DNA from: Candidatus Bipolaricaulia bacterium | Lineage (GTDB): Bacteria; Bipolaricaulota; Bipolaricaulia; JBHIAT01 | Assembly: GCA_046758705.1 (NCBI GenBank) | Contig: JBHIAT010000017.1 | Coordinates: 1-34,145 of the forward strand | Length of the DNA: 34,145 nucleotides | Reading direction: 5' to 3' | Shown here: piece by piece, positions 1,105-28,567 of the stretch | How positions within the stretch are numbered: the stretch's first letter is position 1 | Layout: each line of letters starts with the position of its first letter | Made by a program: the position numbers and the translations under genes | The notes under the pieces: model-generated | Databases searched by the model: none | What the model was told of the DNA's origin: nothing | What the model saw: the letters and a program-made list of their open reading frames with translations, nothing else

Positions 1105-1181
1105 TGGTCGGGGAGACCCGATTTGAACGGGCGACCTCCTGCTCCCAAAGCAGGCGCGCTACCCAGCTGCGCCACTCCCCG
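1105..1181 (-). tRNA. tRNA-Pro (anticodon TGG), CCA encoded
   Basis: CGGGGAG...CTCCCCG-ACCA acceptor stem, anticodon arm CCTGC-TT-TGG-GA-GCAGG, T loop TTCAAAT, 77 nt. Confidence 0.97.
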
Positions 1182-1191
1182 ATGCCTGATC

Positions 1192-1265
1192 ATTATAGCC
1201 ACCCATCGGACCGACCGTCAAGCCGCTTTTGGACGGTTGAACCCTGATCCAAAGCGTTTTACAAT
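1192..1265. promoter_or_regulatory. Divergent sigma70-type promoters for tRNA-Pro (-) and pus10 (+)
   Basis: Minus: TTGACG(1221-1216)-18-TATAAT(1197-1192). Plus: TTGAAC(1237-1242)-17-TACAAT(1260-1265). Confidence 0.7.
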
Positions 1266-1273
1266 AAGGTAAG

Positions 1274-2530
1274 ATGGGAGACCTCGTCGAGACAGCCAAC
1301 CGCATTCTGGAAAAGTACCGACTCTGCGATCCGTGTCTGGGAAGACAGTTCGGCTGGCTGAGCACCGGGTTGACAAACGCGGCGCGGGGTCGAGCATTGC
1401 GGATCGCGGTCGCCCTCGACCGAGACGGGCCGATCTCGACGCTCCCGACCACACCATGCTGGCTCTGCGAGGGACGGTTCACCGAGCTCGACCGCTGGGC
1501 ACAGCGAGCAGTTTCTGCGGTTGCAGGAATCGAGTTCAAAACCTATCTGGTGGGAACACAGGTCCCGGAGTCGATCTCAGAACGAGAACAGGTGCTCATC
1601 CATGAGTTCGGGATCGACTCGCATGAGCCGTTCCAACGGGAGTTCAACCGTGAGGTCGGCAAACGGCTGTCTCAACTCCTTGAGGATCGGCAGGATAGAA
1701 CGGTGACCGTCGATTTCGACCGGCCGGAGGTCGTCCTGCTGTTAGAGCTTGACAGCAACCATATCAAGGTTCAAATTAACCCTCTATTCCTCTACGGACG
1801 GTACACGAAACAGGTCCGTGGTATCCCTCAGACCCACTGGCCGTGCCGGACATGTCGGGGGCGCGGTTGTGAGGCCTGTGACTATACGGGAAAGCGGTAT
1901 CCAGAGTCGGTCGAGGAGTTGATCGCCGAGCCGATCGTGGCAGCGACGCAGGGAAGTAAAGCGATGTTACACGGCGCCGGACGCGAGGACATCGATGCGC
2001 GAATGCTCGGCGACGGACGACCGTTCGTCCTGGAGGTCAAAGAGCCGAGGGTCCGCTGCCTTGATCTAAAAACCCTGGAGGCGGAGATCAACGCGCGCGC
2101 CCAAGGCAAGATCCAGGTCCGAGATCTTCGCACTGTAGGCGGGGAGGCGGTCGAGCGGGTCAAGTCTCTGAAGGCCGACAAGATCTATCGGATCCGGGTT
2201 CTGTTCGAACAGCCGGTGACGGAAGCGCAGCTTAACGGGGCGCTGGGTGAGCTCATCGGGGAGATCCGCCAGCGGACCCCGACCCGGGTCAGCCACCGAC
2301 GGGCGGACAAGGTCCGGATTCGCCAGGTGATCGAGGCATACGGAGAACTGACCGGGGATCGGGAGGCGGAAATCGAGATCCGGGGGGAGTCCGGCCTCTA
2401 TATCAAGGAGCTGATCTCCGGCGACGAAGGACGGACGAACCCGAGTCTCGCCGGCCTGTTAGGGGTCGATGCCCAGGTAGAGACGCTCGACGTGCTTGCG
2501 GTACTCGCAGATCTCGATGATCTGTCGTAA
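1274..2530 (+). CDS. pus10: tRNA pseudouridine(54/55) synthase Pus10, archaeal type
   Basis: N-terminal CxxC pairs (LCDPCLGRQF, CWLC); GRYTKQVRGIPQTHWPC; catalytic loop HGAGREDIDARMLG-GRPF; QRTPTRVSHRRAD; GLYIKELISGDEGRTNPSL. Confidence 0.95.
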   Translation: MGDLVETANRILEKYRLCDPCLGRQFGWLSTGLTNAARGRALRIAVALDRDGPISTLPTTPCWLCEGRFTELDRWAQRAVSAVAGIEFKTYLVGTQVPESISEREQVLIHEFGIDSHEPFQREFNREVGKRLSQLLEDRQDRTVTVDFDRPEVVLLLELDSNHIKVQINPLFLYGRYTKQVRGIPQTHWPCRTCRGRGCEACDYTGKRYPESVEELIAEPIVAATQGSKAMLHGAGREDIDARMLGDGRPFVLEVKEPRVRCLDLKTLEAEINARAQGKIQVRDLRTVGGEAVERVKSLKADKIYRIRVLFEQPVTEAQLNGALGELIGEIRQRTPTRVSHRRADKVRIRQVIEAYGELTGDREAEIEIRGESGLYIKELISGDEGRTNPSLAGLLGVDAQVETLDVLAVLADLDDLS

Positions 2531-2623
2531 TCTCCTCTGTATCGGTTGTCTGGAGCGAACTGTTTCTTGGTTTCCCCCTTGATTTTTGGTATAATAAGCT
2601 TGATGAGGGAGGGATGATCAAGA

Positions 2624-3298
2624 ATGTTCTTCCTATTGGGTCCCGGTTGGCTTCTACTGATACCGGCGCTGTTGCTTGCGACGTATGCCCAATGGAAGGT
2701 GAGGAGCACCTTCAACAAGTATGCGTCGCTGCAGAGCGCCTCTCGGATGACCGCCGGACAGATCGCCCGGAATCTGCTCGATCACGCCGGGCTCGGCCAA
2801 GTGAATATCGAGCCGGTCGCCGGAACGCTGACCGACCACTACGACCCGCGAAACAAGGTGTTGAGGCTCTCCGCTTCAACGAGTCGATCGGTGGCGGCGA
2901 TCGGGGTGGCCGCTCATGAGACGGGCCATGCGATCCAGCATGCCAGAGGGTACAGGCCGCTGGTGCTGCGGTCGGCGATCGTTCCAGTGGTGGGCTTCGG
3001 ATCAAACCTCGCGTTTCCGCTGTTTATCGCCGGGCTCTTGTTCCGTTATCCACCGCTGATGACTTTTGGTATCATCGCCTTCTCGCTGGCGGTGCTGTTC
3101 ACCCTGGTGACGCTGCCCGTTGAGTTCGACGCCAGCCGTCGGGCGGTCAAGCTGCTACACGGCGGAGGGTACGTCACCGATCATGAGGAGCGGGCGGTGC
3201 GCGAGGTTCTGAACGCCGCGGCGCTCACTTACGTGGCATCTGCCGCCATGGCCGCAGTGCAGTTGGTCCGAATGATCCTCCTTAGCCGAAGTCGATGA
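2624..3298 (+). CDS. Membrane zinc metallopeptidase (Zn_peptidase_2, YugP-like)
   Basis: LTDHYDP, AAHETGHAIQH (HExxH), TLPVEFDASRRA, VLNAAALTYVA. Confidence 0.92.
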   Translation: MFFLLGPGWLLLIPALLLATYAQWKVRSTFNKYASLQSASRMTAGQIARNLLDHAGLGQVNIEPVAGTLTDHYDPRNKVLRLSASTSRSVAAIGVAAHETGHAIQHARGYRPLVLRSAIVPVVGFGSNLAFPLFIAGLLFRYPPLMTFGIIAFSLAVLFTLVTLPVEFDASRRAVKLLHGGGYVTDHEERAVREVLNAAALTYVASAAMAAVQLVRMILLSRSR

Positions 3299-3960
3299 AA
3301 CTCCACCCATCTCTCCTGTCAGCGGACTTCAGTCGGCTGGTGGAGGAGGCGAAGACGGTCGCCGACAGTTCGGACGCCTTGCACGTCGACGTGATGGACG
3401 GTCACTTCGTCCCCAACATCACCATCGGCCCGCCGGTTGTCAACGCATTAAGACGAAACCTGGATATACCGTTCGATATCCACCTGATGATCAGCGATCC
3501 CAGAACCTACGCCGTGCGTTTCAATGTCAAGGTCTCGGATACCATCAGTTTTCACATCGAAATCACCGCCGAACCGACCCCGATCATCGAGACGATCCGA
3601 GATCACGGAGCCCGGGTCGGGATCGCGTTGAATCCCGAGACACCGGTAGAGGCCATCGAATCGGTTCTGGAAGCGGTGGATCAGGTGATCGTGATGGGTG
3701 TCCATCCCGGCTTCGGCGGCCAGACAATCATCCCATCCACTCTGGAGAAGATCGCTGCACTGCGCGAGGCGATCGATCAGAAGGGACTTTCGACTGAGAT
3801 CGAGGTCGACGGCGGGGTGAACCTGGAGAACCTGGAGCAAGTGCTAAACGCGGGGGCTGAGGTTATCGTCGCCGGATCGGCGATCTTCGCGAGCCCGGAT
3901 CGACAGGTGACGATCACACAGTTTCGAGAGATCGCCGCCCGCGCCCGGGTCGAATCCTGA
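3295..3960 (+). CDS. rpe: Ribulose-phosphate 3-epimerase
   Basis: PSLLSADF, HVDVMDGHFVPNITIG, DIHLM, PGFGGQ, EVDGGV, VAGSAIF; ATGA overlap with the upstream gene. Confidence 0.96.
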   Translation: MKLHPSLLSADFSRLVEEAKTVADSSDALHVDVMDGHFVPNITIGPPVVNALRRNLDIPFDIHLMISDPRTYAVRFNVKVSDTISFHIEITAEPTPIIETIRDHGARVGIALNPETPVEAIESVLEAVDQVIVMGVHPGFGGQTIIPSTLEKIAALREAIDQKGLSTEIEVDGGVNLENLEQVLNAGAEVIVAGSAIFASPDRQVTITQFREIAARARVES

Positions 3961-3971
3961 TCCTGGTAGTT

Positions 3972-5378
3972 TTACCACGGGTCGGAGCGAGGCACCTCAT
4001 CACCTGTCAGCTCCACCTCTAACTCTACCTCCCCAATCACTGCCGTCTTCCAGTGACCGAGCCGAAACCACAGAACTCCGATCAGTGCTGACATCACAAA
4101 TCCGATCACCATCGCCCACAGAACACCATGGACACCGAAGTCGAGCGTGAACCCGAAGAGCAGGGCGAGCGGGATCGGGATCACCCAGCGCTGCAGCAGC
4201 GAGCAGATCATCGCCGGCACGGTGCGCCCGGCGCCCTGGAACGCCCCCTGAATGATGCTGAGTGACCCCCAGAAGCCGGATGCCAGGACGATGATCCGCA
4301 GAAACGAAGCCCCGGCTTCGATCACCTCACGATCCTTAATGAAGATGCTTATAACCGGCTTGGGGAAAGCGAAGAACAACAGTCCGCCAACGGTGAGCAG
4401 GGCGAAGTCGAGGGCGGTCGCCCCCCAGGCGGCCCGCTCGGCGCGCTCAGGCCGGCGCGCCCCCAGATTCTGGCCCACGGTGGTACCGACCGCCTGTCCG
4501 ATCCCCATCGAGGTCGTCCACACCACCGACATGACCCGGGTGACCACCCCAAAGGCGGCGACCGGAATCGTCCCAAACCGGGCGACGATTGAGATCATCA
4601 CCACCGCCGATAGGCTTCGCACTGCCCCATCCAGGCTCGCCGGTGCCCCGATCTTGACCAACTGCTTGATGAGGGGTAGTTCAGGCCACAGATCCTTCCA
4701 GCTCACGTGGATCCCCCGACGTCCGGAGAACAGCAGATAGAGCCCGGCCCCGGCCGCCACGCCACGGGACAAGAGCGTGGCGATCGCCGCGCCACGCAGC
4801 CCAAGCGCCGGCAACCCGGCCCACCCCAAGATCAGAAATGGATCGAGGATCATATTCAGCCCGGTTGAGATGACCATCAGCCACATCGGCGTCAGCGCAT
4901 CGCCGGCGCCACGCAGCACCGACCACAACGCAAAGAAGCTCCAGGCAAACGGCAGGCCGGCGAAGATGATCCCAAGATAGTCCGATGCCAGAGGTAGCGT
5001 CTCCGCAGTTGCTCCCATCTGGGTCAGCAACCAACCCCGAGCCGGTATGGCAATGGCCGCCAGTGCCCCCGAGGCGAGCACGGCCAGGGTCACGGCCTGG
5101 CCGGCAACGCGATTCGCCCGCCTGTTCTCGCCGGCCCCAATGTACTGCGCCACCAATGCGGCACCCGCGATACTGGTCCCGGTACCTATTGCGATCGACA
5201 TCCAGACGGTCGGAAACGACAGCGAGATCGCCGCCACCGCCTCGGTGCTCACCCGCCCCACCCAGAACATGTCGGTGAGGTTATAAAACAGTTGCAGCCA
5301 GTTGCCCAAGACGAGCGGCCACGCCAGCCGAGCGAGGGCCGGGAAGATCGCGCCTTCGGTCAGATCGATCCGCTTCAT
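3972..5378 (-). CDS. MATE family efflux transporter
   Basis: DLTEG...LAWP, DMFWVG, RGAGDALTPM, NMILDP, GAAIAT, GQNLGA; about 12 hydrophobic segments in two halves. Confidence 0.93.
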   Translation of the reverse strand: MKRIDLTEGAIFPALARLAWPLVLGNWLQLFYNLTDMFWVGRVSTEAVAAISLSFPTVWMSIAIGTGTSIAGAALVAQYIGAGENRRANRVAGQAVTLAVLASGALAAIAIPARGWLLTQMGATAETLPLASDYLGIIFAGLPFAWSFFALWSVLRGAGDALTPMWLMVISTGLNMILDPFLILGWAGLPALGLRGAAIATLLSRGVAAGAGLYLLFSGRRGIHVSWKDLWPELPLIKQLVKIGAPASLDGAVRSLSAVVMISIVARFGTIPVAAFGVVTRVMSVVWTTSMGIGQAVGTTVGQNLGARRPERAERAAWGATALDFALLTVGGLLFFAFPKPVISIFIKDREVIEAGASFLRIIVLASGFWGSLSIIQGAFQGAGRTVPAMICSLLQRWVIPIPLALLFGFTLDFGVHGVLWAMVIGFVMSALIGVLWFRLGHWKTAVIGEVELEVELTGDEVPRSDPW

Positions 5379-6697
5379 CAGAGGTACCGCCCATCTTGGA
5401 AATCCCCCGCTGCGTCGAACGCCAGTGACTCAGGCTCACCGATCGGTTCAAGCTCCGGGTGCTCGTTGATCGACTCCAACAGGCTCTCAGAGACGAACAG
5501 CGTCTCGAGCTTTGCGGTGTTCTCGATCCATGCAATTCCCGCCTCTGGGGGGGAGACCCCGATTGAGGCGAGGCAGAGTTTCAGTGCTGCCCGATCGCTG
5601 TCGAAGTGCGGAGGGATGCGGGCCTTCTCCGGTCCGGTGCCGGTGAGCGCGTTAACGTAGGTGGTTCGGGGATCGAGCTTGTCGATCACGCGACGGTGTA
5701 CGATATCGGCCAGTCCAATCCCGGTCGCGTTGCCGTGGGATGCCTCCGTCAGGTCGCGCACGTAGATCCGTGAGATCGCGGGCCGCCGGGGCTCGGCCTG
5801 TCCGAGCACCATGATGCGGCCGATGACGTGGGTGTCCATTCCGGTACCGCTGATGTTCTTCCCCATCTCATCGACGATCAGCAGGTCGAGCGCGTCAAAC
5901 GGCAGGGTCGGCATCAGCTCCCTCGCCTGCTCAAGCAACGCCGGCTCGCGTTCGAACAGACGCTCGGGGGGAATCGCCTCAACGATCGCAGTCCGACCGT
6001 AAAAGTTCTCAACGATCGCCAACCCACCCAGGACCGGCAGTTGGTCTAAAACCACTCCGGCGATCTCCCGGATGGCCTGTTCCAGACCGATCCGAAACCC
6101 CCATCGGTGGACGGTCCGTGCCCCGATGGCTTTACCTATGCCAACGGCGAGCACCTTGAGCAGGCCGCTTCCGATCTTGCCTGAGAAGGAGGTGTGAGGT
6201 TTCACCCGGTTGACGATCAGGAGCCCATCGGCCTGAGACGCGATCCGGTCGACCACCACCGAGATGCCGGCCTCGGTCTCTCCGAGCACAACGGTGGCCA
6301 TCGTCCCTCGAATCGGGCAACCAATTGACGCTTCATTGATCCCTAGAGAGCGGAGCATCCCCAGTTGTCCGTCCACGGTCGCCCCGCCATGGCTGCCCAT
6401 CGCTGGAAACAGAAACGGCTTCGCTCCGATCGCCTTCAGATGGCCGATGACCTCCTGGAGAATTGGAACAATGTCGGAGATCCCCCGACTGCCTGCGGTT
6501 ACCGCCACCTGGGCACCCGGTTTCAGCCTGGAGCTCAGAGCCAGTCGTTCCAATTGCTCCCGAACGGTCTGCCCCAGATTATCTATCTCAACGGTCTCGA
6601 CCGACCGCCGAACCCGGATGAATTGCGGCAACATCTCATCGCGGATGTCAGCGATCGCCTCGAAGATCTCCTCGCCTGGGCTACCCTTGCCAGCCAT
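5378..6697 (-). CDS. LarA-like (DUF2088 / lactate racemase domain) protein
   Basis: VAVTAGSRGI, PAMGSHGGAT, NRVKPHT, MGKNISGTGMDT, SHGNATGIGLAD; TGATG coupling to the MATE gene; start taken at ATG 6697. Confidence 0.75.
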   Translation of the reverse strand: MAGKGSPGEEIFEAIADIRDEMLPQFIRVRRSVETVEIDNLGQTVREQLERLALSSRLKPGAQVAVTAGSRGISDIVPILQEVIGHLKAIGAKPFLFPAMGSHGGATVDGQLGMLRSLGINEASIGCPIRGTMATVVLGETEAGISVVVDRIASQADGLLIVNRVKPHTSFSGKIGSGLLKVLAVGIGKAIGARTVHRWGFRIGLEQAIREIAGVVLDQLPVLGGLAIVENFYGRTAIVEAIPPERLFEREPALLEQARELMPTLPFDALDLLIVDEMGKNISGTGMDTHVIGRIMVLGQAEPRRPAISRIYVRDLTEASHGNATGIGLADIVHRRVIDKLDPRTTYVNALTGTGPEKARIPPHFDSDRAALKLCLASIGVSPPEAGIAWIENTAKLETLFVSESLLESINEHPELEPIGEPESLAFDAAGDFQDGRYL

Positions 6698-9287: not shown

Positions 9288-10268
9288 ATGGAAAAGCAGG
9301 CTCTGGAGAAACGTATTTTGGGAAAGAGTGGTATCGCTGTGACCAGCATTGGGATTGGCCTGTGGGCCATGGGCGGTAACGAGTGGGGAGCTACCGACGA
9401 CCGGGAATCCCTCAATGCGATTCATGCCGCTTTAGATGCTGGGGTGAACTTCTTCGATACCGCCGACGTCTACGGCGTCGGTCACAGTGAAGAGCTGCTC
9501 GGCCAGGCGATGAAAGGGCGTCGCGACCGGTTTATCGTCGCCACCAAGATCGGCTGGCGGAACTTCGATGAAACGCGCAACCGGACTGCCTACGACACCG
9601 TCGACAAGCTGATTGCCGGTGTGGAGAGCGGTCTGCGTCGCCTAAACACCGACTACGTGGATATCATTCAGAGCCATATCAACTTCCGCGATCCCACCAT
9701 GGAGATCTTTTTGGAAGGTTTTCACAAGCTCCAGCGGGATGGCAAAGTGCGGGCCTACGGGGTCAGCACCAGTGACTTTGAGTACCTGAAGGCGTTCAAT
9801 GCCGACGGCAATTGTGCCACCCTGCAGATCGACTACAGCATCCTTAACCGGACGCCGGAGGCCGATATCTTCCCCTACTGTCAGGAGAACGACATCGGCG
9901 TCATCGTGCGGGGTCCGCTGGCGATGGGCATCCTCGCCGGCAAGTTCGGTCCCGATACGCGGTTTGGCGAAGGTGATTTCCGGCAGCGCTGGCATGACAA
10001 CCCGGAGGAGCACCAGATCTTCCTGGACGATCTGGCCAAGGTGGACAAGTTGCGTCCTCTGGCTCAGAATCGCACGCTGGCCCAACTGGCCCTGCAGTTT
10101 ACGTTGGCCCATCCGGCTGTCACCACGGTAATCCCAGGAGCCAAGACGGACAAACAACTGCAGGAGAACGTGGAGGCGGGACTGATTGCGTCGCTGAACT
10201 CTGGGGAGCTAGCAGAGATCGACACCATCACCCCGCCGAGCGGCGGTCGCAAGATCTGGCCGGCATGA
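9288..10268 (+). CDS. Aldo/keto reductase
   Basis: GVNFFDTADVYGVGHSEELLG, VATK, GKVRAYGVS, PLAMGILAGK, VIPGAK; SD AAGGAGG. Confidence 0.94.
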   Translation: MEKQALEKRILGKSGIAVTSIGIGLWAMGGNEWGATDDRESLNAIHAALDAGVNFFDTADVYGVGHSEELLGQAMKGRRDRFIVATKIGWRNFDETRNRTAYDTVDKLIAGVESGLRRLNTDYVDIIQSHINFRDPTMEIFLEGFHKLQRDGKVRAYGVSTSDFEYLKAFNADGNCATLQIDYSILNRTPEADIFPYCQENDIGVIVRGPLAMGILAGKFGPDTRFGEGDFRQRWHDNPEEHQIFLDDLAKVDKLRPLAQNRTLAQLALQFTLAHPAVTTVIPGAKTDKQLQENVEAGLIASLNSGELAEIDTITPPSGGRKIWPA

Positions 10269-10321
10269 CGATCAAGATTCTTTCACCGACCTGTTTGTAA
10301 GACGGAAGTAACGTTGTAGTA

Positions 10322-10567
10322 CTAACTTAGGGCACTTAGGTCAAAGACAGGGGTCTCTTCCTTCCTCGTCGGCTCTCTTGCTTCTCTAACCACTCGATCC
10401 ATCTCCTCTAGGATCTCTGCACTGAGATATTCTTCTCCGCATTGGTCGCACACTAACGCCTCGACATTCTCAAAGATGTAAAGCCGACCATTATGCCTCT
10501 CCTCATGTGTTATAGTCTTCTTTACCAAAGCCCCTCCGCATAAGGGACATAACCTTCTCTTCCCCAT
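10322..10567 (-). CDS. YgiT-type zinc finger protein (MqsA N-terminal-like, no HTH)
   Basis: CPLCGG...IFENVEALVCDQCGEEYL. Confidence 0.88.
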   Translation of the reverse strand: MGKRRLCPLCGGALVKKTITHEERHNGRLYIFENVEALVCDQCGEEYLSAEILEEMDRVVREAREPTRKEETPVFDLSALS

Positions 10568-10576
10568 TATCCGGGA

Positions 10577-10888
10577 TCACCTCCTCCGCGTCCAAGGATC
10601 GATCCATTCCTCTGGATCCATCCAATGTGCAGTAACGATGTATGCTTCCTCTCCGTCAAAGGAACAGGAGATATAGAGAGGCTCCCCTTCTCTAACAAAA
10701 CCCATGATCAAACACTTAGGATAGGGCTTATCCTGCTGATGCTCTTCCAAAATCTCCCCTTCCATGATGGCCTTCTCTATATCTTCCTTCTCTATGCCTC
10801 TTTCGATCATTCTCTTCCTCGCATGAGCTCTGAGATAGTACTTCTTTGCCCTAACTGCTTTCCTGATATCCTCAAGAGCTATAGACAT
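10577..10888 (-). CDS. DUF4258 family protein (putative RelE-like toxin)
   Basis: HARKRMIERGI...GEILEE...DKPYPKCLIMG...IVTAH...PEEW; lies upstream of a YgiT finger, the usual pairing. Confidence 0.88.
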   Translation of the reverse strand: MSIALEDIRKAVRAKKYYLRAHARKRMIERGIEKEDIEKAIMEGEILEEHQQDKPYPKCLIMGFVREGEPLYISCSFDGEEAYIVTAHWMDPEEWIDPWTRRR

Positions 10889-11079
10889 TTCTCGTCTCAG
10901 GAATAGTATAGTTGCTCAGGGTCATTACCACAACCTGATGTTGTCTGAGGACGACTAACAAAGAGGAGAGGTAAGACCCCCACAGGAGCTGCCGAGGATC
11001 ACTACGACAGCTGTAGTAGCAGCACGTCGCAGGTCGTGGTGAAAGAGATTTGTTTGATAAAAGTATGGAATGCAAGTTA

Positions 11080-14000
11080 TCAGACAGCTGCAGCTGTCCT
11101 CGACCGAAAGAGTTGGATGAACGTATCGCTTACGATATGGTCTTTGGTATCTGCCGCGTATTGTATCAACTGTTCGCGTAACGCCTGGGCATCTTCCAAT
11201 GGCATTAACACTGCCAAAAGGAAATATACTCCGCGGAAACGCAGATCGCTCAAGTATTCTTGCGGCCTGTTATTATCAGGTCCAAGGAACGTCTGTACGA
11301 TAAAGAATTCCCTGATCTTATCGTGCCGAAAATGCCATTCCTTGGTCAGATTCCCCTGTGCATCCAAGGCCTGTCGGATAACGACCATTTTATGTCGCTC
11401 CATGCATTGTAATTCTTTAAGGTATTCCTCCCCGCTCAAGGCTACTTCGTCCTTCAGCCGCATCTGAAATACTTTCTCCGAGAAGGAATCAAGTGGGAAT
11501 TCCTGGTTATTCACACGCTTGTAATCCGCAGCCATGATGTTGTATTGCTGTTCCTGCAGGTGAAAAAGGTCCGGATCTTGCTCGCGAGCCAACATATGCG
11601 CCACCACGGTCAGATCCATAGGGTTAGAAAGAATTCTCTTCGCCGAGGCAAGCGCCTCTTCTGGCTGCTGTTCATTTAACGCCTCAGAGAGATAGCTCAG
11701 GCAGGCCTGCTCGTAATCTGTCCCAGATACTGTGGCATCCTCGGGAAGGCTCTGTTCACGCGTGAGAAGAAAACGTTCAATCTGGTCCTGCGTGAGCGGC
11801 TGCATTATGTAGATTTTCGCTGTAGAGGGTGGCGTCCACTCCAGCGGTTGTGTGACCATGATGATATTTCCCTTAAAGTAACTCTCCACAAACTCAGTCA
11901 CCCTGGCTCGTGTGTCTGCCGTCACTTCGTTCAAACCATCAATGCAGATATCGATTGCCCTACTGTAAATCAGATTTCGGAGGAAATCAGGGTCCCTCGC
12001 CGGACCATGCAGCTTTGCCTGAATGGCTTCAATTACCCCTCTCGAACATTTCTCGGCGGGCAAATAAACCACAATACGCTTCGAGCGTTTCACCAGATGT
12101 CGGAGGAACATGGTTTTTCCAAGCCCCGAGTCCCCTTCGAGGACTATCTGCCCTTTGATCTTAGGGATCACTTCTCTGATAGGTTGGATGCACTCCGATG
12201 TCTTGATCTTAACTTTGGACTCTTCAAAGTAGGCTTGTGGATCGAAGCTTTCCAACGCGGCATCAGATAGTAGAGATTCCTTGAACGGAGCCAACAGCTT
12301 CAAACGCAGGTAGGGAACCCAAGTGAGCGCAAAGCCGACATAGCCAAGCCCAGTAATACGCCGTACCCACCGATTCCAAAAAAAGATAGCCTGGATCTGT
12401 GAGGATTTCGGGTAGATAAAGGTTAATAACAGCCAGAAAAGAGCGTGAGCAGGCCAAATTTTAAGCGCAATTTTACTTATGTCAGAGAACCATCGCTTTC
12501 TTTCGAGGGAAGAGATTGTGTTTTGAACGGGGACAGCATAGATAGACCCTGAAGATTTCAAATTGGACGCATGGCGCCGAAGAAGGGGAAGATCATCACG
12601 TTTCCACGTCACTGTACTGGCCACTATAGCTATCTGTTTTTCCAAGTCGTCATGCAATCTGGGAAGAGAGGTGCTTGCTTCCCAAGCTTTTTCAAAAACT
12701 TTCAAGTTATTGACGCCATCATCGTGCATGATGGTGTCTGGATAATTTTCTGGAATTCCAAGCCATTTAATGAGAATCTCCGCTCCTTCTTTGCCACCAC
12801 CCAAGAAATGGGCAAGGAATCGAAGCTCACCGACCCGCGATATATTCCCGTATACTGGACTCAAAATGTGAAGAATGCTTTTCAAATCCAATGGTCCCAT
12901 CGCAGTCAGCGCATCGATAACAGTAGTATCATAAACCGAAGATCCAAAGCCCCAAAATGTAGGTCGAAAGTCCGTAGGTCGAAAGTCCGAAAATACAGGT
13001 TCCATGGGAAAGGTGCTTGTAATTGTAACATCATTCAACAGATTCGCAATCCTTGGGGCTTGATCCTTGGCGATCTCTCCTATGATCCCCAGCGCTTGGG
13101 CAGCGGTAGCACGCACAAACCCATTTGGATCATTCAACAGGTTCGCGATCTTGGGGACCTGATCCTTGGCGGCCTCTCCCATGGTCCCCAATGCCTTGAC
13201 AGCGGCAGCGCGCACAGACGCATCCGGATCATTCAACAGGTTCGCGATCTTGGGGACCTGATCCTTGGCGGCCTCTCCTATGGCTCCCAACGCCTGGGCA
13301 GCGATAGCACGCACAGACGCATTTGGATCATTCAGCAGGTTCGCGATCTTGGGGACCTGATCCTCGGCGGCCTCTCCCATGATCCCCAACGCCTCTACAG
13401 CAGCAGCACGGACACCCCTAGCCGGGTCATTCAACAGGTCCACAAGCATTGGGGCTTGATCCTTGGCGGCCTCTCCCATGGCCCCCAGCACCCGAGTAGC
13501 AACAGCACGGACATCCTCATTCGAGTCATCTAACAGGTTCGCGATCTTGGGAGCCTGATCCTTGGCGGCCTCTCCCATGACCCCCAACGCCTTGACAGCG
13601 GCAGCACGGACATCTTCATTCGGGTCATCCAACAGATTCGCGATCTTGGGGACCTGATCCTCGGTGGCTGCTCCTATGGCTCCCAACGCCTTGACAGCGG
13701 CAGCACGGACATCCTCATCCGGGTCTTTTAACAGGTTCACAAGCTTGGGGGCCTGATCCTTGGCGGCCTCTCCTATAGCTCCCAATGCCTGGGCAGCGGT
13801 AGCACGCACATCCTCATCCGGGTCATCCAACAGGTTCGCGATCTTTAGGATCTGATCTTTGGTGACATCTCCCATGATCCCTAACGCTTCTACAGCGGCA
13901 GCACGGACATCCCTAGCTGGATCATCCAACAGATTCACAAGCTCTGGGACCTGATCCTTGATGGCCTCTCCCATGGCTCCCAATGCCTTGGCAGCGGCAG

Positions 14001-14667
14001 CACGCACAGACGCATTTGGATCATTCAACAGGTTCGCGATTTTGGGGACCTGGTCCTTGGCGGCCTCTCCCATGGCCCCTAGCGCTTCAGCAACGGCAGC
14101 ACGCACAGACGCATTTGGGTCATTTAACAGGTTCGCGATCTTGGGGACCTGATCCTTGGCGGCCTCTCCCATGGCTCCTAACGCCTTGGCAGCGGCAGCA
14201 CGCATAGACACATCCTCATTTAAGTCATTCAACAGGTCCACAAGCATTGGGGCTTGATCCTTGGCGGCCTCTCCCATGGCCCTCAACGCCTCGGCAGCGA
14301 CGAAACGGACAAGCCCAGGCTCATCCGGATCTTTCAATAGGTCCACAAGCATTGGGGCCTGATTCTTAGCAACCTCTCCCATGGCCCCCAGTGCCCTGAT
14401 AGCCGTAACACGAACATCCACATCCGGTATTTCTAGCATGTCGACAATTCTTTTTATGGGGATTGTGCCGAGAGATTTAAACTCCCTCAATTTATCCAAC
14501 GCCTTAGCTTGTACTTCGGGATTTGAATCCTCAAAAGCGGCCAAAGCACCATTGATTTTCCACGTTTCCGCCTCTGGTTTGGGCTCTGCGGTGTTGCCGA
14601 AGAGTGGGAAGAAAAGCACTGTCAAAAGAAAAGCGAGCAGCCAGTTAAATTTGGAATGCTTGGTCAT
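11080..14667 (-). CDS. Signal peptide + HEAT repeats + transmembrane segment + C-terminal NACHT/STAND-type NTPase (~1195 aa)
   Basis: Start reassigned to ATG 14667 (MTKHSKFNWLLAFLLTVLFFPLFGNTA, signal-like), which removes the overlap with the nuclease gene. About 14 HEAT repeats; TM IWPAHALFWLLLTFIYP; Walker A GDSGLGKT; Walker B ICIDGLNE; NPMDL; winged-helix motif FRHDKIREFF. Confidence 0.85.
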   Translation of the reverse strand: MTKHSKFNWLLAFLLTVLFFPLFGNTAEPKPEAETWKINGALAAFEDSNPEVQAKALDKLREFKSLGTIPIKRIVDMLEIPDVDVRVTAIRALGAMGEVAKNQAPMLVDLLKDPDEPGLVRFVAAEALRAMGEAAKDQAPMLVDLLNDLNEDVSMRAAAAKALGAMGEAAKDQVPKIANLLNDPNASVRAAVAEALGAMGEAAKDQVPKIANLLNDPNASVRAAAAKALGAMGEAIKDQVPELVNLLDDPARDVRAAAVEALGIMGDVTKDQILKIANLLDDPDEDVRATAAQALGAIGEAAKDQAPKLVNLLKDPDEDVRAAAVKALGAIGAATEDQVPKIANLLDDPNEDVRAAAVKALGVMGEAAKDQAPKIANLLDDSNEDVRAVATRVLGAMGEAAKDQAPMLVDLLNDPARGVRAAAVEALGIMGEAAEDQVPKIANLLNDPNASVRAIAAQALGAIGEAAKDQVPKIANLLNDPDASVRAAAVKALGTMGEAAKDQVPKIANLLNDPNGFVRATAAQALGIIGEIAKDQAPRIANLLNDVTITSTFPMEPVFSDFRPTDFRPTFWGFGSSVYDTTVIDALTAMGPLDLKSILHILSPVYGNISRVGELRFLAHFLGGGKEGAEILIKWLGIPENYPDTIMHDDGVNNLKVFEKAWEASTSLPRLHDDLEKQIAIVASTVTWKRDDLPLLRRHASNLKSSGSIYAVPVQNTISSLERKRWFSDISKIALKIWPAHALFWLLLTFIYPKSSQIQAIFFWNRWVRRITGLGYVGFALTWVPYLRLKLLAPFKESLLSDAALESFDPQAYFEESKVKIKTSECIQPIREVIPKIKGQIVLEGDSGLGKTMFLRHLVKRSKRIVVYLPAEKCSRGVIEAIQAKLHGPARDPDFLRNLIYSRAIDICIDGLNEVTADTRARVTEFVESYFKGNIIMVTQPLEWTPPSTAKIYIMQPLTQDQIERFLLTREQSLPEDATVSGTDYEQACLSYLSEALNEQQPEEALASAKRILSNPMDLTVVAHMLAREQDPDLFHLQEQQYNIMAADYKRVNNQEFPLDSFSEKVFQMRLKDEVALSGEEYLKELQCMERHKMVVIRQALDAQGNLTKEWHFRHDKIREFFIVQTFLGPDNNRPQEYLSDLRFRGVYFLLAVLMPLEDAQALREQLIQYAADTKDHIVSDTFIQLFRSRTAAAV
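12959..12988. repeat. Perfect 15-bp tandem duplication GTAGGTCGAAAGTCC x2
   Basis: Read directly; encodes DFRPT-DFRPT in frame. Confidence 0.9.
13030..14430 (-). repeat. Coding tandem array of ~14 units of 99 bp (33-aa HEAT repeats); boundaries approximate
   Basis: Recurrent GATCCTTGGCGGCCTCTCCCATGG and CAGGTTCGCGATCTTGGGGACCTG; consensus QVPKIANLLNDPNASVRAAAAKALGAMGEAAKD. Confidence 0.93.
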
Positions 14668-14740
14668 GTTCTTCGACTCTGCATGGGTTTGATAGATGCG
14701 CCAGTGACCACGATCCGATTTCTGCAGTGGTGATTCTGTA

Positions 14741-15706
14741 TTATTCAATGTTGTCTTCTTTGGAGTTGGCAGACTGTTCGATTTCAGAAGTGCTGGCTTT
14801 TGTTCGTACGGACACAAACTGCGTTCCAGATTGGGGATATTGATGAAGTTCAAGAGCAAATGTCTTACCCATGTGCTTAAACTCAAACTCAGCACTTTGA
14901 GCCACGATCTTGTTGTCATCCCGATAGACCCGCACGGTGGTTACAGGTTTCTTCTCGACTTCGATCCATAGCTCAGTGTACACTTCGATATATGCAATAT
15001 CTACGGCTCCAGATGTAGTTATCAATTGGAAGCAATCTTGCTCATTTGTAAAATCCAAATGAATAAGCCGTTTAACTTTGGAACCATTTGGCAAAACGTT
15101 GGAGTATAGTTTTTCGCGAGGAGCACATGCCCAGATGTCCATAAAGGATGCTGAGGTTCCATCCTTCTTTCTTCGAAAAATTGGCGCATTGATATCAAAA
15201 GATGGTTTGACCTTGGTAAGCACTTCGGGCGGAAGTTCAACTTTGACACTGTCTGGAAGTGGAAGATTAACTGATATGCGATCGAAATTTGCAGAATGTT
15301 TAAAATATGTTATTTTATTGCAAGTGAACCAGAGCACGATTTCATCAGGATCAACTTCTTCCAAAGTTCGTAGCTCAATGTTATTAGTAATCGCTATATT
15401 CCTCGCGCCAGACGTAAATCCTGTCGAGGACACAGCTACAGCTTTGTCTGCTTCAACATCTCTGCATTTCGATGCGAGCTGCTCTATCCAAGTTACATCT
15501 TCGGTTCCCTGGCGATCTCGACTCTCAATGATTACCAGGATCTCAGAGGAGCCTATCTGACTTCGAAGGGAGATGTCAACTTCCCGCCTCGATTTGGATT
15601 CTCTTCCTTGAATGTAGTCAGGTGAAGTGACCTGTATACCCTCTGGGCCCAGATGCTCTTCAAGCAGGGCGATCAATCTCTCTAGATCTCGACCTTTTCT
15701 TGTCAT
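14741..15706 (-). CDS. Mrr_cat-like PD-(D/E)xK restriction endonuclease domain plus uncharacterised ~200-aa C-terminal region
   Basis: KGRDLE, RREVDI, IIESRD, DVTWIEQL, AVAVSSTGFTSGA...NNIELR; SD AAGGAG. Confidence 0.82.
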   Translation of the reverse strand: MTRKGRDLERLIALLEEHLGPEGIQVTSPDYIQGRESKSRREVDISLRSQIGSSEILVIIESRDRQGTEDVTWIEQLASKCRDVEADKAVAVSSTGFTSGARNIAITNNIELRTLEEVDPDEIVLWFTCNKITYFKHSANFDRISVNLPLPDSVKVELPPEVLTKVKPSFDINAPIFRRKKDGTSASFMDIWACAPREKLYSNVLPNGSKVKRLIHLDFTNEQDCFQLITTSGAVDIAYIEVYTELWIEVEKKPVTTVRVYRDDNKIVAQSAEFEFKHMGKTFALELHQYPQSGTQFVSVRTKASTSEIEQSANSKEDNIE

Positions 15707-15736
15707 AAATCACATTCTCCTTCACGCTGGTCAAAA

Positions 15737-15892
15737 ACGATATAATATAACTCCCACATAGACGGATCTGTGAAGTTCATCTAACGATTAATGTCATTTC
15801 GTCACTACAATGTCAATATAGCATATTTACTGAGGAGGGTCAAGGCTCGCCCGTTCTCATAACTTTTAGTGGATATCGGGGAGTTATATCGT
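15737..15892. repeat. Inverted repeat pair (ATATAACTCCC 15745-15755 / GGGAGTTATAT 15879-15889) enclosing a promoter
   Basis: 11-bp perfect IR, extendable to TATnnGGGAGTTATAT and, allowing a 5-bp ATATA duplication in the left copy, to ACGATATAACTCCC. Confidence 0.7.
15815..15843 (-). promoter_or_regulatory. Sigma70-type promoter facing the nuclease-HEAT/NACHT genes
   Basis: TTGACC-17 bp-TATATT with extended -10 (TGc); a second TTGACA overlaps the -10. Confidence 0.65.
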
Positions 15893-15979
15893 GCTATAGA
15901 GACATGCATCCAACGATCGACCTATATCTGGAAGATGGAAATGGAAGTGAAGCTCTGCCGAGCAGTAGATCCTTCCTAA

Positions 15980-16023
15980 AGGTCATGGTCGGGGCGACCC
16001 CGTGGGTCGCCCCTCTATGACCT
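15980..16023 (-). terminator. GC-rich hairpin; terminator of the trk-oxidoreductase operon and/or REP-like element
   Basis: GGGGCGACCC-CGT-GGGTCGCCCC with outer AGGTCAT/ATGACCT arms, just after the stop at 16032. The minus strand has GTAG at the 5' foot and only a short T run. Confidence 0.6.
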
Positions 16024-24062: not shown

Positions 24063-24971
24063 TCACACTTCAAACGAGCTATAGCGAATCGCTTGGCTGG
24101 CGATCTCTTCAGCCTTCTGGATGTAGATCTTGCTGGTATCCGGGGAGCTGTGCCCGAGAAAGTTCTGGATTACCTGGAGCGGTGCGCCGTTGAGTGCCAT
24201 GTTGGTGGCGCAGGTGTGGCGCAGGGAGTGAGGGGTGATGTGCTTGGGAATCCCGACCTGTTCAATGTACCCCCGCACGATTCGGACCATGTGCGTCGGC
24301 GAGATCCTGGGATCGTCTCGGGACTTGCGGCTCTCGATGAGGTAGGACTCGCGGTCCTGTGGGCTCTGGAAGCTTTTCTCCGAGCGGCGCATGTACTCGA
24401 TCACCCGGGCAAACAGGTCATCGGCGATCGGGATCGTTCGCTCACGATTCCCCTTCCCTTGAACGGTCAGAAACGCCCGACCGTTCATCATCGAAAAATC
24501 CTTGAGCCGGATGTTGCGGATCTCTCCTTGGCGTAGACCGGCCTTCAGGCCCAGAGCGAAGATCAGGTAATCCCGCGGATCGTCGATGGCGCTGAGCAAC
24601 ATGCGCACCTCCGTCTCATCGAGCACCTCCTTGGGGCTGCGGCGGTTGACCTTTGGACTGCTGAGGATCTCGTCGATCTCCTCCGGTGACAGCGCCGTCG
24701 CACCGGTCCGACTGGCGAACTTGAAGAACGAACGCACCACCGAGAGCACCCGGGCGATCGTACTGTTGTGATAACCCCGCAGTTCCTGCTTGTAGTCGAG
24801 CAACATCTCGAGATCGACCTCGTCCACAAACTTGGTGGGAACCCGGGTGAAGAATCCAACGACGTCGCCTCGGTAGGCCTTAAGCGTATAGGGGGATGCG
24901 TCCGGCTTGAGTGATTGGAGGAAGCGGTGCAGGATCATCTCGTAGGGGTGGTGTCGGAAATCGGGCTTCAT
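24063..24971 (-). CDS. XerC/XerD-like tyrosine recombinase
   Basis: SAM-like N-terminus ([25 protein letters not shown]); catalytic GLRQGE, GKGNRER, HSLRH, LGHSS, KIY; ATG 24971 overlaps the metK stop (ATGA). Confidence 0.92.
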
Positions 24972-26158
24972 AAACCGGCGCGCTCCTTCAAGGCTTCCAC
25001 TCGGTCCGTCCATTCCCAGGGCAAGTCGAGCTCTGGCCGGCCGAAGTGGCCATAAGCGGAGAGCGGTTGGTAGATCGGCCGTCTCAGATCGAGTGTCTCG
25101 ATGATCGCGGCCGGACGGAAGTCGAAGCTGTCGCGGATGATCTCGGCCAGTCGGCTGTCGGAGAGGCGGCCGGTCCCAAAGCTGTTGACGGTGATGGCGA
25201 TCGGCTTGATCATCCCGATGGCATAGGCGATCTGGATCTCGCACTCCTCAGCCAACCCGGCCGCCACGACGTTCACCGCGACGTAGCGGGCCATGTATGA
25301 GCCGGAGCGATCGACCTTGGTCGGATCCTTCCCCGACAGAGCCCCGCCTCCGTGACTCCCGTAACCGCCGTAGGTATCGACGATGATCTTTCTGCCGGTC
25401 ATCCCGGTGTCGGCCTGGGGCCCCCCTTCTACAAACCGGCCTGAGGGATTGATGCGCACTTTTGTCTCTTTATCCATCCAGTCATCCAGGATCGGCTCGA
25501 TCACCGCCTTCCGGATCCCCGTCTCCAGTTCCTGTTTCGATAGTTCGGGATCGTGTTGCGCTGAGATCAGCACCGTATGCACTCGGATGGGTGCCCGGCC
25601 CTCGTACTCCACCGTTACCTGAGACTTGCCATCGGGGCGTAGATAGGGCAGAATCCGCTCCTTACGAACCTCGGCCATCCGCCGGGTGAGTCGATGGGCG
25701 AGCATGATGGGCAGGGGCATCAGTTCCTCGGTCATGTTGTTGGCGTAGCCGTACATGATCCCCTGATCCCCGGCTCCGAGGGCCTGATAGCGATCTTGTT
25801 GTCCCCCCCGGGTCTCCTTCGCGCGACTGACGGCCTGAGCGATGTCAGGAGACTGCTCACTGACGGAGGTGAGCACGGCAATCTCCTCACAATTGAACCC
25901 ATGCTCCGGCCGATCGTACCCGACGGCCCGGATCTGGTCCCGGGCGATTCTGGGGATGTTGACGGACGTGGTCGTCGTGATCTCTCCACCGATCAATGCC
26001 AGGCCGGTCGTCAGAAAAACCTCACAGGCAACCCGAGCCTCAGGATCCTGGATGAGAATGGCGTCCAAGATACTGTCGGCGATCCTATCGGCTAGCTTGT
26101 CGGGGTGACCTTCCGTCACCGATTCGGAGGTGAACAGTTTTTTGTCGTGGCGCCCCAT
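24968..26158 (-). CDS. metK: S-adenosylmethionine synthetase (bacterial type)
   Basis: [55 protein letters not shown]. Confidence 0.98.
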
Positions 26159-27501: not shown

Positions 27502-28567
27502 CTACTGCTTCAGATAGCTTTCGATGAACACGTCCAGATCCCCGTCGAGCACCCGATCCACATCGCCGAGTTCCACCTCAGTGCGGTGATCCTTGACCAA
27601 CCGGTAGGGGTGCAGGATGTAGGAGCGGATCTGATGACCCCACTCGATATCCTTCAGCTCACCGCGCAGTTCCTCCAATCGCTCTAGCTGTCGCTCCTGC
27701 TGGTAGGTATGTAGCTTGGCTTTCAGGATTTTGAGTGCGGTCTCTCGGTTCTGATGTTGAGAACGTTCGTTCTGGCAGCTCACCACAATTCCGGTCGGCA
27801 GGTGGGTGGTGCGCACCGCCGAGTCGGTGACGTTGACATGCTGACCGCCGGCACCGCTCGATCGAAACGTCTCGATCTTGAGATCGTCATCCTTGATATC
27901 GACCTGGATGTCCTCGAGCTTCGGCGTCACCGTCACCGAGGCAAATGAGGTGTGACGACGGCCTCCTGCATCGTAAGGGGAGATGCGCACCAACCGATGG
28001 ACGCCTTGCTCGCCCTTCAAGTAGCCATAGCTGTACACCCCGTCCACCTCGATCGTGGCGCTTTTGATCCCGGCCACCTCGCCCGGGCTGACCTCGATAA
28101 GCTGTGACCGAAAGCTGTGTGTCTCTACCCAGCGCAGGTACATCCTGAGCAGCATCTCCGCCCAATCCTGAGCATCGGTTCCCCCGGCCCCGGCATTGAT
28201 GGTGAGGAAGCAATCGAGTTCAGCGTGCAGCCAGTCCATGAACACCTGCAGCTCAAACTCACGCAGCTGGGTCTTGAGCGCCGCCGATCGCCGTTCGACC
28301 TCGTCCAGGACCTCGTCATCCTCAGCCTCTTCGGCGAGCTCACCGAGGAGCTCAACCTCCTCGATCTCCTCCTCCAGCTTTCGATATACGTTCAGCAACT
28401 CTTTATCGCGCTTGAATTGCTGGGTGGCGTTTCGGACGCGCTCCTGATCCTCCCAGAACTCGGCCTCGGCCATCTCGGCCTCGAGTCGGGCGATCCGTTC
28501 CGCCAAGCCATCCGGATCAAAGGCGATCACCGACGAGCAGCAACCGTTTCCGCAACGCTTCTAACAT
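27502..28567 (-). CDS. prfB: Peptide chain release factor 2, decoded through a +1 frameshift at CTT-TGA (28522-28517)
   Basis: GGAGGTG-SD ATG 28567 gives [16 protein letters not shown]-stop; the +1 frame continues DPDGLAER... with [34 protein letters not shown]. Confidence 0.95.

Follow-up and report, generated by a model that had tools for sequence, protein, structure and literature searches.

The window analysed here, a stretch of 34,145 bases which comprises the entire contig C17 (JBHIAT010000017.1) of a bacterial draft genome, contains an intact gene for an archaeal-type tRNA pseudouridine(54/55) synthase, Pus10 (1274..2530, plus strand). The host belongs to the phylum Bipolaricaulota (Acetothermia/OP1). 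Pus10 is a trait of this phylum and not the result of a one-off transfer, and the bacterial pseudouridine synthase TruB was not found in any of the genomes surveyed. Sequence comparison makes it likely that Pus10 replaces TruB for pseudouridine 55 (Psi55) and also makes Psi54, and that the methyltransferase TrmY methylates Psi54; in that case bacterial tRNA would carry an archaeal-style 54/55 module.

The reading frame encodes 418 amino acids followed by a stop codon and matches the family model TIGR01213 with 528.2 bits (cut-off 200) over model positions 2-401 of 402; a profile search of the whole genome gave 527.9 bits. The protein consists of an N-terminal zinc-ribbon-like element with four conserved cysteines (C18, C21, C62 and C65; 1325..1468), for which zinc binding is predicted from the motif, a THUMP RNA-binding domain (residues 75-157; 1496..1744; PF22023 Pus10_THUMP_arc, E 1.4e-24) and a catalytic pseudouridine synthase domain (residues 172-410; 1787..2503; PF21238 Pus10_C, E 5.5e-66, profile positions 1-231 of 232). 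Motif mapping places the forefinger-loop segment at residues 191-213 (1844..1912), where the stretch CxxCxGxGCxxC (residues 191-202, CRTCRGRGCEAC) is followed by DYTGKRYPESV including Y209. The active-site motif GREDID with Arg237 and the catalytic Asp239 (residues 236-241; 1979..1996) was assigned by conservation and by the consensus GREDxD given in excerpts of an earlier study (PMC3753934), and the thumb-loop pair His341-Arg342 (2294..2299) by conservation and by its motif, which maps to the His-Arg of the Pus10 of Methanocaldococcus jannaschii (MjPus10). Among solved structures, human PUS10 (2V9K) is the sole sequence match (E 4.7e-31). An AlphaFold model with a mean pLDDT of 95.8 and a pTM of 0.90, built on an alignment (A1) of 47 sequences (the window protein and 46 of 150 representative sequences), likewise has 2V9K as its top match in the PDB (TMq 0.78, E 2.7e-32), followed by TruA, TruB, Cbf5 and Pus1 with values of at most 0.38. 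The equivalog match, the three-part architecture, the GREDxD site, the dual-type forefinger and thumb loops and the fold were all found, and they show that the window encodes an intact Pus10 with the expected motifs and fold: a canonical enzyme in an unexpected domain of life. A sequence-only reading of the same DNA had already described an intact gene with all motifs of the family, and GREDID, CxxCxGxGCxxC and the four N-terminal cysteines are indeed present.

The distribution of the gene was followed in a first survey of the window genome and 40 relatives (one class, 9 other families and 22 genera) and in a full survey of 184 Bipolaricaulota genomes, 71 of which are of high quality (completeness of 90 % or more, contamination of 5 % or less). 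As controls, 14 genomes of 10 bacteria and 4 archaea were used. Pus10 is present in 40 of 41 genomes of the first survey, in 169 of 184 of the full survey, comprising 52 of 54 genera, and in all 71 genomes of high quality; the positive set includes two single-contig genomes (96 % and 99 % complete), and every one of the 15 genomes with no Pus10 match is less than 90 % complete. TruB (TIGR00431) was found in none of the 41 and none of the 184 genomes, using a model which matches 14 of 14 controls, the archaea via Cbf5. A second TruB model, PF01509, gives no match in the window genome and is above cut-off in all 14 controls. In the closed genome G004 the genes infB and rbfA are followed by a gene for 441 amino acids with no Pfam or NCBIfam match and then by a convergent gene; TruB does not occupy its usual slot there. 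Pus10 is missing from all ten bacterial control genomes and present, as expected, in 101 of 101 sampled archaeal genomes of the phylum of Methanoculleus palmolei. Furthermore, TruA (PF01416) was not found in the window genome or in any of the 41 class members, with a model that matches 13 of 14 controls, and the window genome has only one gene of the RluA/RsuA type. The clade seems to possess a very small set of pseudouridine synthases.

For position 54, the window genome encodes TrmY on contig C6 (10402-10974, minus strand; PF04013 with 189.3 bits, NF002560 with 233.4 bits at a cut-off of 183), located next to an alkaline-phosphatase-like gene and a protein-isoaspartate methyltransferase. The protein resembles the solved TrmY of M. 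jannaschii (MJ1640, 3AIA; E 1.8e-41) and lies above the equivalog cut-off, and N1-methylation of Psi54 is predicted from the family and from the co-occurrence with Pus10. Among the 14 controls PF04013 matches only three archaea. TrmY was detected in 144 of 184 genomes and in 66 of the 71 of high quality, but in none of 19 genomes of family f6 and none of 11 genomes of genus g22. According to excerpts of a review on SPOUT methyltransferases, TrmY acts only on tRNA that was pseudouridylated beforehand by Pus10 (PMC9508554); retention of TrmY therefore implies that Psi54 is formed. A Pus10-TrmY operon was considered and rejected, since the two genes are located on separate contigs here, and in relatives the distance between them amounts to 10-14 kb (three genomes of family f7) or to hundreds of kb.

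Enzymes for the usual bacterial modification, 5-methyluridine at position 54 (m5U54), are scarce in the phylum. No gene of the TrmA/RlmD type matches in the window genome (the model matches 12 of 14 controls), and none is above cut-off in the 184 genomes, where 11 weak matches reach at best 37.7 bits. TrmFO is likewise not above cut-off in the window genome, where the sole match (24.9 bits) covers 33 residues at the N-terminus of the model. Above cut-off it occurs in nine of 184 genomes, all of genus g22 (9 of 11); the other 87 matches are partial (45-70 bits), lie inside open reading frames (ORFs) of about 620 amino acids and are taken to be MnmG-like. The only lineage which gained an m5U54 enzyme is thus also one that lost TrmY, which is one event and not a statistic. 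A search for Trm56 found nothing, and the TrmI model yielded no more than a weak match of 21.8 bits, below its cut-off; the archaeal part is limited to the 54/55 module.

Comparative genomics bears out all three parts of what the sequence-only reading had proposed, and more strongly than could be seen from the sequence alone. A domesticated gene agrees with its presence in 169 of 184 genomes and in all those of high quality together with a backbone-like composition, and the suggested replacement of TruB with the failure of two models, both positive in every control, to find that enzyme. The archaeal-style modification of the T-loop, put forward there as a possibility, is made probable by TrmY in this and the other genomes, by the lack of TrmA-type matches above cut-off and by the restriction of TrmFO to g22.

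In the mechanism proposed for the host of the window, Pus10 would act as the resident pseudouridine synthase of the tRNA T-loop. The zinc ribbon and the THUMP domain would dock the acceptor/T arm, and the T-loop would be pinched by the thumb and forefinger loops. Asp239 of GREDID would then isomerise U55 to Psi55, which is the task of TruB in other bacteria, and also U54 to Psi54. Finally, TrmY would methylate Psi54 to 1-methylpseudouridine (m1Psi54), a modification that would substitute for m5U54, the bacterial product of TrmA or TrmFO. The enzyme activities and the tRNA targets named here are predictions from homology. As for the substrates, 44 of the 47 tRNAs predicted in the window genome have a T-loop starting with U54-U55-C56, combined with A58 in 43 of these 44; the remaining three of the 47 are doubtful predictions.

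The residues which distinguish both activities have been described for MjPus10. Excerpts of that work state that Asp275 and Leu440 are required for both activities, and that Arg273, Tyr339 and the forefinger segments initiated by cysteines are required for Psi54 but not for Psi55 (Joardar 2013, PMC3753934). The same excerpts report that the Psi55-only Pus10 of Pyrococcus possesses neither those forefinger segments nor the His-Arg 'hook' of the thumb, and that in E. coli MjPus10 prevails over TrmA and forms both Psi54 and Psi55 in the tRNA (PMC3753934). In an alignment of 50 bacterial and 101 archaeal Pus10 sequences, Gly, Arg, Glu and Asp of GREDxD are invariant in both groups. The same holds true for the four N-terminal cysteines, which are also invariant in alignment A1, and for the thumb Arg; the thumb His is kept by all 50 bacterial sequences and by 98 of the 101 archaeal ones. 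The positions of Tyr305, Lys378 and Leu405 are kept in all 50 bacterial proteins. C191, C194, C199, C202 and Y209 are nearly invariant in alignment A1, and the forefinger segment has its full length in every sequence displayed.

A deviating pattern is seen in genus g22, from which seven sequences (ten g22 genomes have Pus10) were compared with 148 others. Y209 in the forefinger segment is replaced by Ala or Ser in 7 of 7 (Tyr in 147 of 148 others), P185 by Ala in 7 of 7 (Pro in 143 of 148) and V293 by Glu or Gln in 7 of 7 (Val in 139 of 148); E254 is changed in all seven and is Glu in all 148 others. The catalytic residues of the g22 enzymes are intact. These changes fit a loss of the Psi54 activity in a lineage where TrmFO would need a free U54. 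A wider reading, judged somewhat probable but with clear reservations, is that the whole phylum swapped m5U54 (TrmA/TrmFO) and Psi55 (TruB) for m1Psi54 and Psi55 (Pus10 and TrmY), which would be the first case of natural 1-methylpseudouridine in the tRNA of bacteria; in g22 the swap would have been partly reversed, TrmFO replacing TrmY and Pus10 being narrowed to Psi55 via the substitutions at Y209, P185 and E254.

The bacterial nature of the host is shown by the contig itself. The draft genome, which originates from a hydrothermal vent, comprises 3.70 Mb in 319 contigs (93.9 % complete, 4.7 % contaminated), and Pus10 lies 1.3 kb from the end of its contig. The genes for RF2 (prfB), RsmI and a bacterial MetK, on which the sequence-only reading had based its view of a clearly bacterial contig, are accompanied by PilC, PilT, TrkA/TrkH and a dGTPase, and the closest bacterial relatives bear the names Candidatus Bipolaricaulota, Acetothermia and Bipolaricaulis. 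The backbone-like composition noted in the same reading was found again: the GC content at third codon positions (GC3) is 0.723 compared with 0.74-0.81 in the neighbouring genes, and the tetranucleotide distance corresponds to the 70th percentile of 300 random windows. The locus is present in four public runs from a single study of hydrothermal-vent metagenomes; none of the RNA runs is listed as carrying it. Continuity of the assembly, a point left for checking in the sequence-only reading, is supported by contigs from single runs, which cover 1135-6000 with no differences in two runs and link Pus10 to genes for a zinc peptidase, rpe, MATE and a LarA-like protein. The assembly may itself derive from these runs, which therefore provide an independent assembler and not independent data. 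The sole break (1134-1136) lies inside a tRNA-Pro gene, and the depth jumps there because other organisms share the tRNA sequence.

The window Pus10 is 46-55 % identical to the proteins of other Bipolaricaulota and 46-51 % to archaeal Pus10; the best of 1.84 billion representative sequences shares 51 %. Three trees were calculated. FastTree with 262 rows (151 derived from loci and 111 of the 150 representatives, length 385-480) yields a clade with a support of 96 which unites 48 of 50 bacterial rows with four unlabelled representatives and contains no archaeal row. A quick IQ-TREE under LG+G4 with 97 rows (32 of 50 bacterial, 17 of 61 named archaeal and 24 of 40 unnamed archaeal rows, and 24 of 111 representatives) places 29 bacterial rows together, with an SH-aLRT (SH-like approximate likelihood ratio test) support of 36.9 for exactly these and 89 if two unnamed archaea are included. 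In that tree the bacterial rows are found within a clade (96) with Methanomicrobiales, apart from sequences of the Methanosarcinales/Methanocellales type, and the families f3, f4, f5, f7, f9 and f11 are each coherent. The bootstrap tree with 48 rows has 17 of 19 bacterial rows and one long-branched unlabelled representative on one side of a branch (ultrafast bootstrap, UFBoot, 77; SH-aLRT 98), and its archaeal backbone is unresolved. Naming the Methanomicrobiales as donor was considered on account of the 97-row tree and given up: the 48-row tree does not bear this placement out, and therefore no donor is named. In these unrooted trees the donor would lie within the sampled archaeal diversity.

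The approximately unbiased (AU) test on the 48 rows rejects one clade of all 19 bacterial rows (log-likelihood difference 136.7, p 8e-40), and a clade of 17 without genus g6 is not rejected (p 0.41), a group which was defined after seeing the tree. Pus10 of g6, which belongs to family f6, groups with a representative whose cluster is labelled by NCBI as Pus10 of Candidatus Frackibacter (Bacillota, Halanaerobiales) and, as the AU test indicates, has an origin distinct from that of the other Bipolaricaulota copies. The history is therefore not one single transfer. For the other lineages, one old acquisition early in the phylum and vertical descent since would account for the tree, with direction and age of the transfer deduced from sequence. 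Of the old transfer from an archaeon to a bacterium in the sequence-only reading, the age is upheld by the coherent families; a single event is not. As a separate observation, seven metagenome-assembled genomes (MAGs) labelled Thermotogae, Thermotogaceae or Thermotogota carry a Pus10 of the Bipolaricaulota type, all inside the bacterial clade of the FastTree; the three of them included in the 97-row tree nest among Bipolaricaulota, two being paired with named ones at 99-100. TruB was found in none of four records (three of the MAGs with Thermotogae/Thermotogota labels and one 'uncultured bacterium'), and these labels are probably wrong.

Several observations weigh against a complete and specific exchange of the modification enzymes. 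Since TruA is not found either, TruB could have been lost along with pseudouridine synthases in general and not in a specific swap, and most of the genomes surveyed are incomplete drafts. The residues were mapped to the numbering of M. jannaschii by motif only, and support for a single bacterial clade (96; 36.9 or 89; 77/98) is moderate. In family f6, 18 of 19 genomes possess Pus10, yet neither TrmY nor TrmFO is found and the TrmA type gives weak generic matches in 2 of 19; the full module is therefore not universal. In addition, Vibrio possesses a homologue of the TrmY family of unknown function (2QWV), so that family membership alone leaves the substrate unfixed. The last two points also speak for a Pus10 that is restricted to Psi55 as in Pyrococcus; U54 would then stay unmodified or be served by an enzyme not yet known, and the TrmY homologue would act on a different substrate. 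Some archaeal Pus10 are Psi55-only, as stated in excerpts of two papers (PMC7912444, PMC3753934). This explanation is nevertheless unlikely: all features linked to Psi54, namely the forefinger segment, Arg237, Tyr305 and the thumb His-Arg, are intact here, TrmY lies above the equivalog cut-off and has Psi54 as its sole known substrate, no m5U54 enzyme was found in the window genome, and the sole lineage with TrmFO, g22, has lost TrmY and has an altered forefinger region. Still less probable is that Pus10 is kept for another role, such as a different RNA target or non-catalytic RNA binding, and that Psi55 is absent from the phylum. The invariant catalytic and tRNA-specificity residues in all 50 bacterial sequences argue for catalysis on the same substrate, and TrmY is co-retained, although human PUS10 does have non-catalytic roles according to excerpts of a review (PMC9957541) and a low-pseudouridine lifestyle is conceivable in view of the missing TruA.

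With respect to origin, Pus10 might also be ancestral, predating the split of bacteria and archaea, and have been lost by the other bacteria. A deep position of the phylum among bacteria is often proposed (excerpts of the preprint 10.1101/2025.11.21.689855), and an unrooted tree in which most bacterial rows lie on one side of a branch, with the archaeal backbone of the 48 rows unresolved, would be compatible with such a history. It is considered improbable, because the 97-row tree puts the bacterial rows in a clade with Methanomicrobiales, the identity of about 50 % to archaeal Pus10 is as high as that to other Bipolaricaulota, and Pus10 is found in none of the ten bacterial controls. Archaeal contamination or a chimeric join in the draft genome can practically be dismissed. 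The position near the contig end, the break of the assembly graph in the tRNA-Pro gene and the contamination value of the draft would allow for it, whereas the single-run contigs joining Pus10 to its neighbours, a composition matching that of the genome and the presence in all 71 high-quality genomes including single-contig ones contradict it. The replacement of TruB by Pus10, combined with TrmY, is preferred to all four of these explanations.

Upstream of Pus10, and divergent from it as the sequence-only reading had stated, lies the gene for tRNA-Pro(TGG) (1105..1181, minus strand; ARAGORN, and Rfam tRNA with 63.3 bits), whose T-loop TTCAAAT is a likely substrate of Pus10. In the spacer of 92 bases two promoter-like sites stand back to back, both no more than pattern matches: TTGACG-18-TATAAT (1192..1221, minus strand, 11 of 12 matches) faces tRNA-Pro, and TTGAAC-17-TACAAT (1237..1265, plus strand, 9 of 12 matches) ends 8 nt ahead of the ATG of Pus10. 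A pattern scan of 900-2800 gave these two sites compared with 0.6 +/- 0.8 in shuffled sequences. The sigma70-type promoter claimed earlier is thus present as a pattern, which is not evidence of function. AAGG sits between TACAAT and the ATG (1260-1276), and the mRNA leader would be very short if the promoter is real. None of 30 bacterial Pus10 loci of relatives contains a tRNA gene, for which reason the adjacency to tRNA-Pro looks incidental. Likewise, none of six neighbour proteins of the window is found beside Pus10 in 91 related loci, and with neither neighbours nor tRNA conserved the gene context gives no functional clue.

Some other features of the window may be mentioned. Two small ORFs upstream of tRNA-Pro (200-634 and 752-1084, both on the minus strand), one with a ribbon-helix-helix (RHH)/DUF433 and one with a UPF0175 assignment, are antitoxin-like or regulator-like. 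A low-GC island at 10000-16000 (GC 0.44-0.51 compared with about 0.60 elsewhere), which is likely recently acquired DNA, encodes a HEAT/PBS-lyase-repeat protein of 1279 amino acids (11080-14919, GC3 0.55) and a protein of 321 amino acids (14741-15706, GC3 0.40) that carries a restriction endonuclease domain of the Mrr type. The ORF of prfB (27502-28530, minus strand) begins at position 15 of the RF2 model, and the first residues may be located in another frame; a programmed +1 frameshift is known for this gene. Finally, an ORF for a tyrosine recombinase of the XerC/XerD type (24063-25244, minus strand) shares, as called, about 280 bases with the 3' end of metK, and the true start of this ORF is probably further downstream.

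Psi55 made by TruB, as well as m5U54, has been treated as a constant of bacterial tRNA. A phylum with Pus10 and TrmY, and with no TruB, TruA or TrmA-type enzyme found, would mean that the core modification of the tRNA elbow is exchangeable between domains of life. Natural variants for the question of how Pus10 picks U54 or U55 are available in genus g22, family f6 and genus g6, and the reversal in g22, if true, would be a natural experiment which pinpoints the residues setting the site specificity. TruB is used as a universal bacterial marker in genome quality tools, and its lack in this phylum is relevant to tools with that expectation. Excerpts of a preprint report a pure culture of the phylum (10.1101/2025.11.21.689855), and therefore the prediction is directly testable.

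In excerpts of two reviews, Pus10 is stated to be 'not in Bacteria' (T-loop review of 2021, PMC7912444) or not to occur in bacteria (review of 2023, PMC9957541). Among the papers listed in literature searches, none on Acetothermia/Bipolaricaulota contains Pus10, none listed for Pus10 together with TrmY and bacteria is on the phylum by title or abstract, and none pairs Pus10 with Frackibacter, Halanaerobiales or Planctomycetota. A term search of the closed-genome paper (PMC6092417) and the isolation preprint (10.1101/2025.11.21.689855) gave no mention of pseudouridine. NCBI already names proteins of Acetothermia/Bipolaricaulota MAGs 'tRNA pseudouridine(54/55) synthase Pus10', and its labels place the enzyme in at least one other bacterial lineage (Candidatus Frackibacter). 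For this reason the gene call is not new; the reading as a system is. The labelled proteins of these MAGs represent the same phenomenon as the window Pus10, and the Frackibacter-type Pus10 is a member of the same family which groups with Pus10 of genus g6 and not with the clade of the window.

Among the known systems, Pus10 of M. jannaschii is reportedly, since work by Gurha and Gupta in 2008, a dual tRNA Psi54/Psi55 synthase. It shares with the window Pus10 the family TIGR01213, the succession of zinc ribbon, THUMP and catalytic domain, GREDxD, the full-length Cys-rich forefinger segment, the thumb His-Arg and a genomic TrmY partner; unlike M. jannaschii, the host of the window is a bacterium with neither TruB nor Cbf5, and the nearest archaeal sequences found are about 50 % identical. 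Pyrococcus furiosus, which combines a Psi55-only Pus10 with an m5U54 methyltransferase of the RlmD type, is an archaeal precedent for the apparent route of g22. In g22, by contrast, the m5U54 enzyme is TrmFO and the forefinger is substituted (Y209, P185) and not deleted, and the window Pus10 is of the unaltered type. Human PUS10 (2V9K), the best structural match, has an alignable catalytic domain (23 % identity in the structural alignment) but a larger accessory domain and a gap in place of the CxxCxGxGCxxC stretch. Bacterial TruB (TIGR00431/PF01509) would yield the same product as predicted for the window enzyme, Psi55 in the T-loop of nearly all tRNAs, and belongs to the same catalytic fold superfamily, its structures matching the model at a TMq of at most 0.32; it is nevertheless a different family, which lacks a THUMP domain, a forefinger loop and Psi54 activity.

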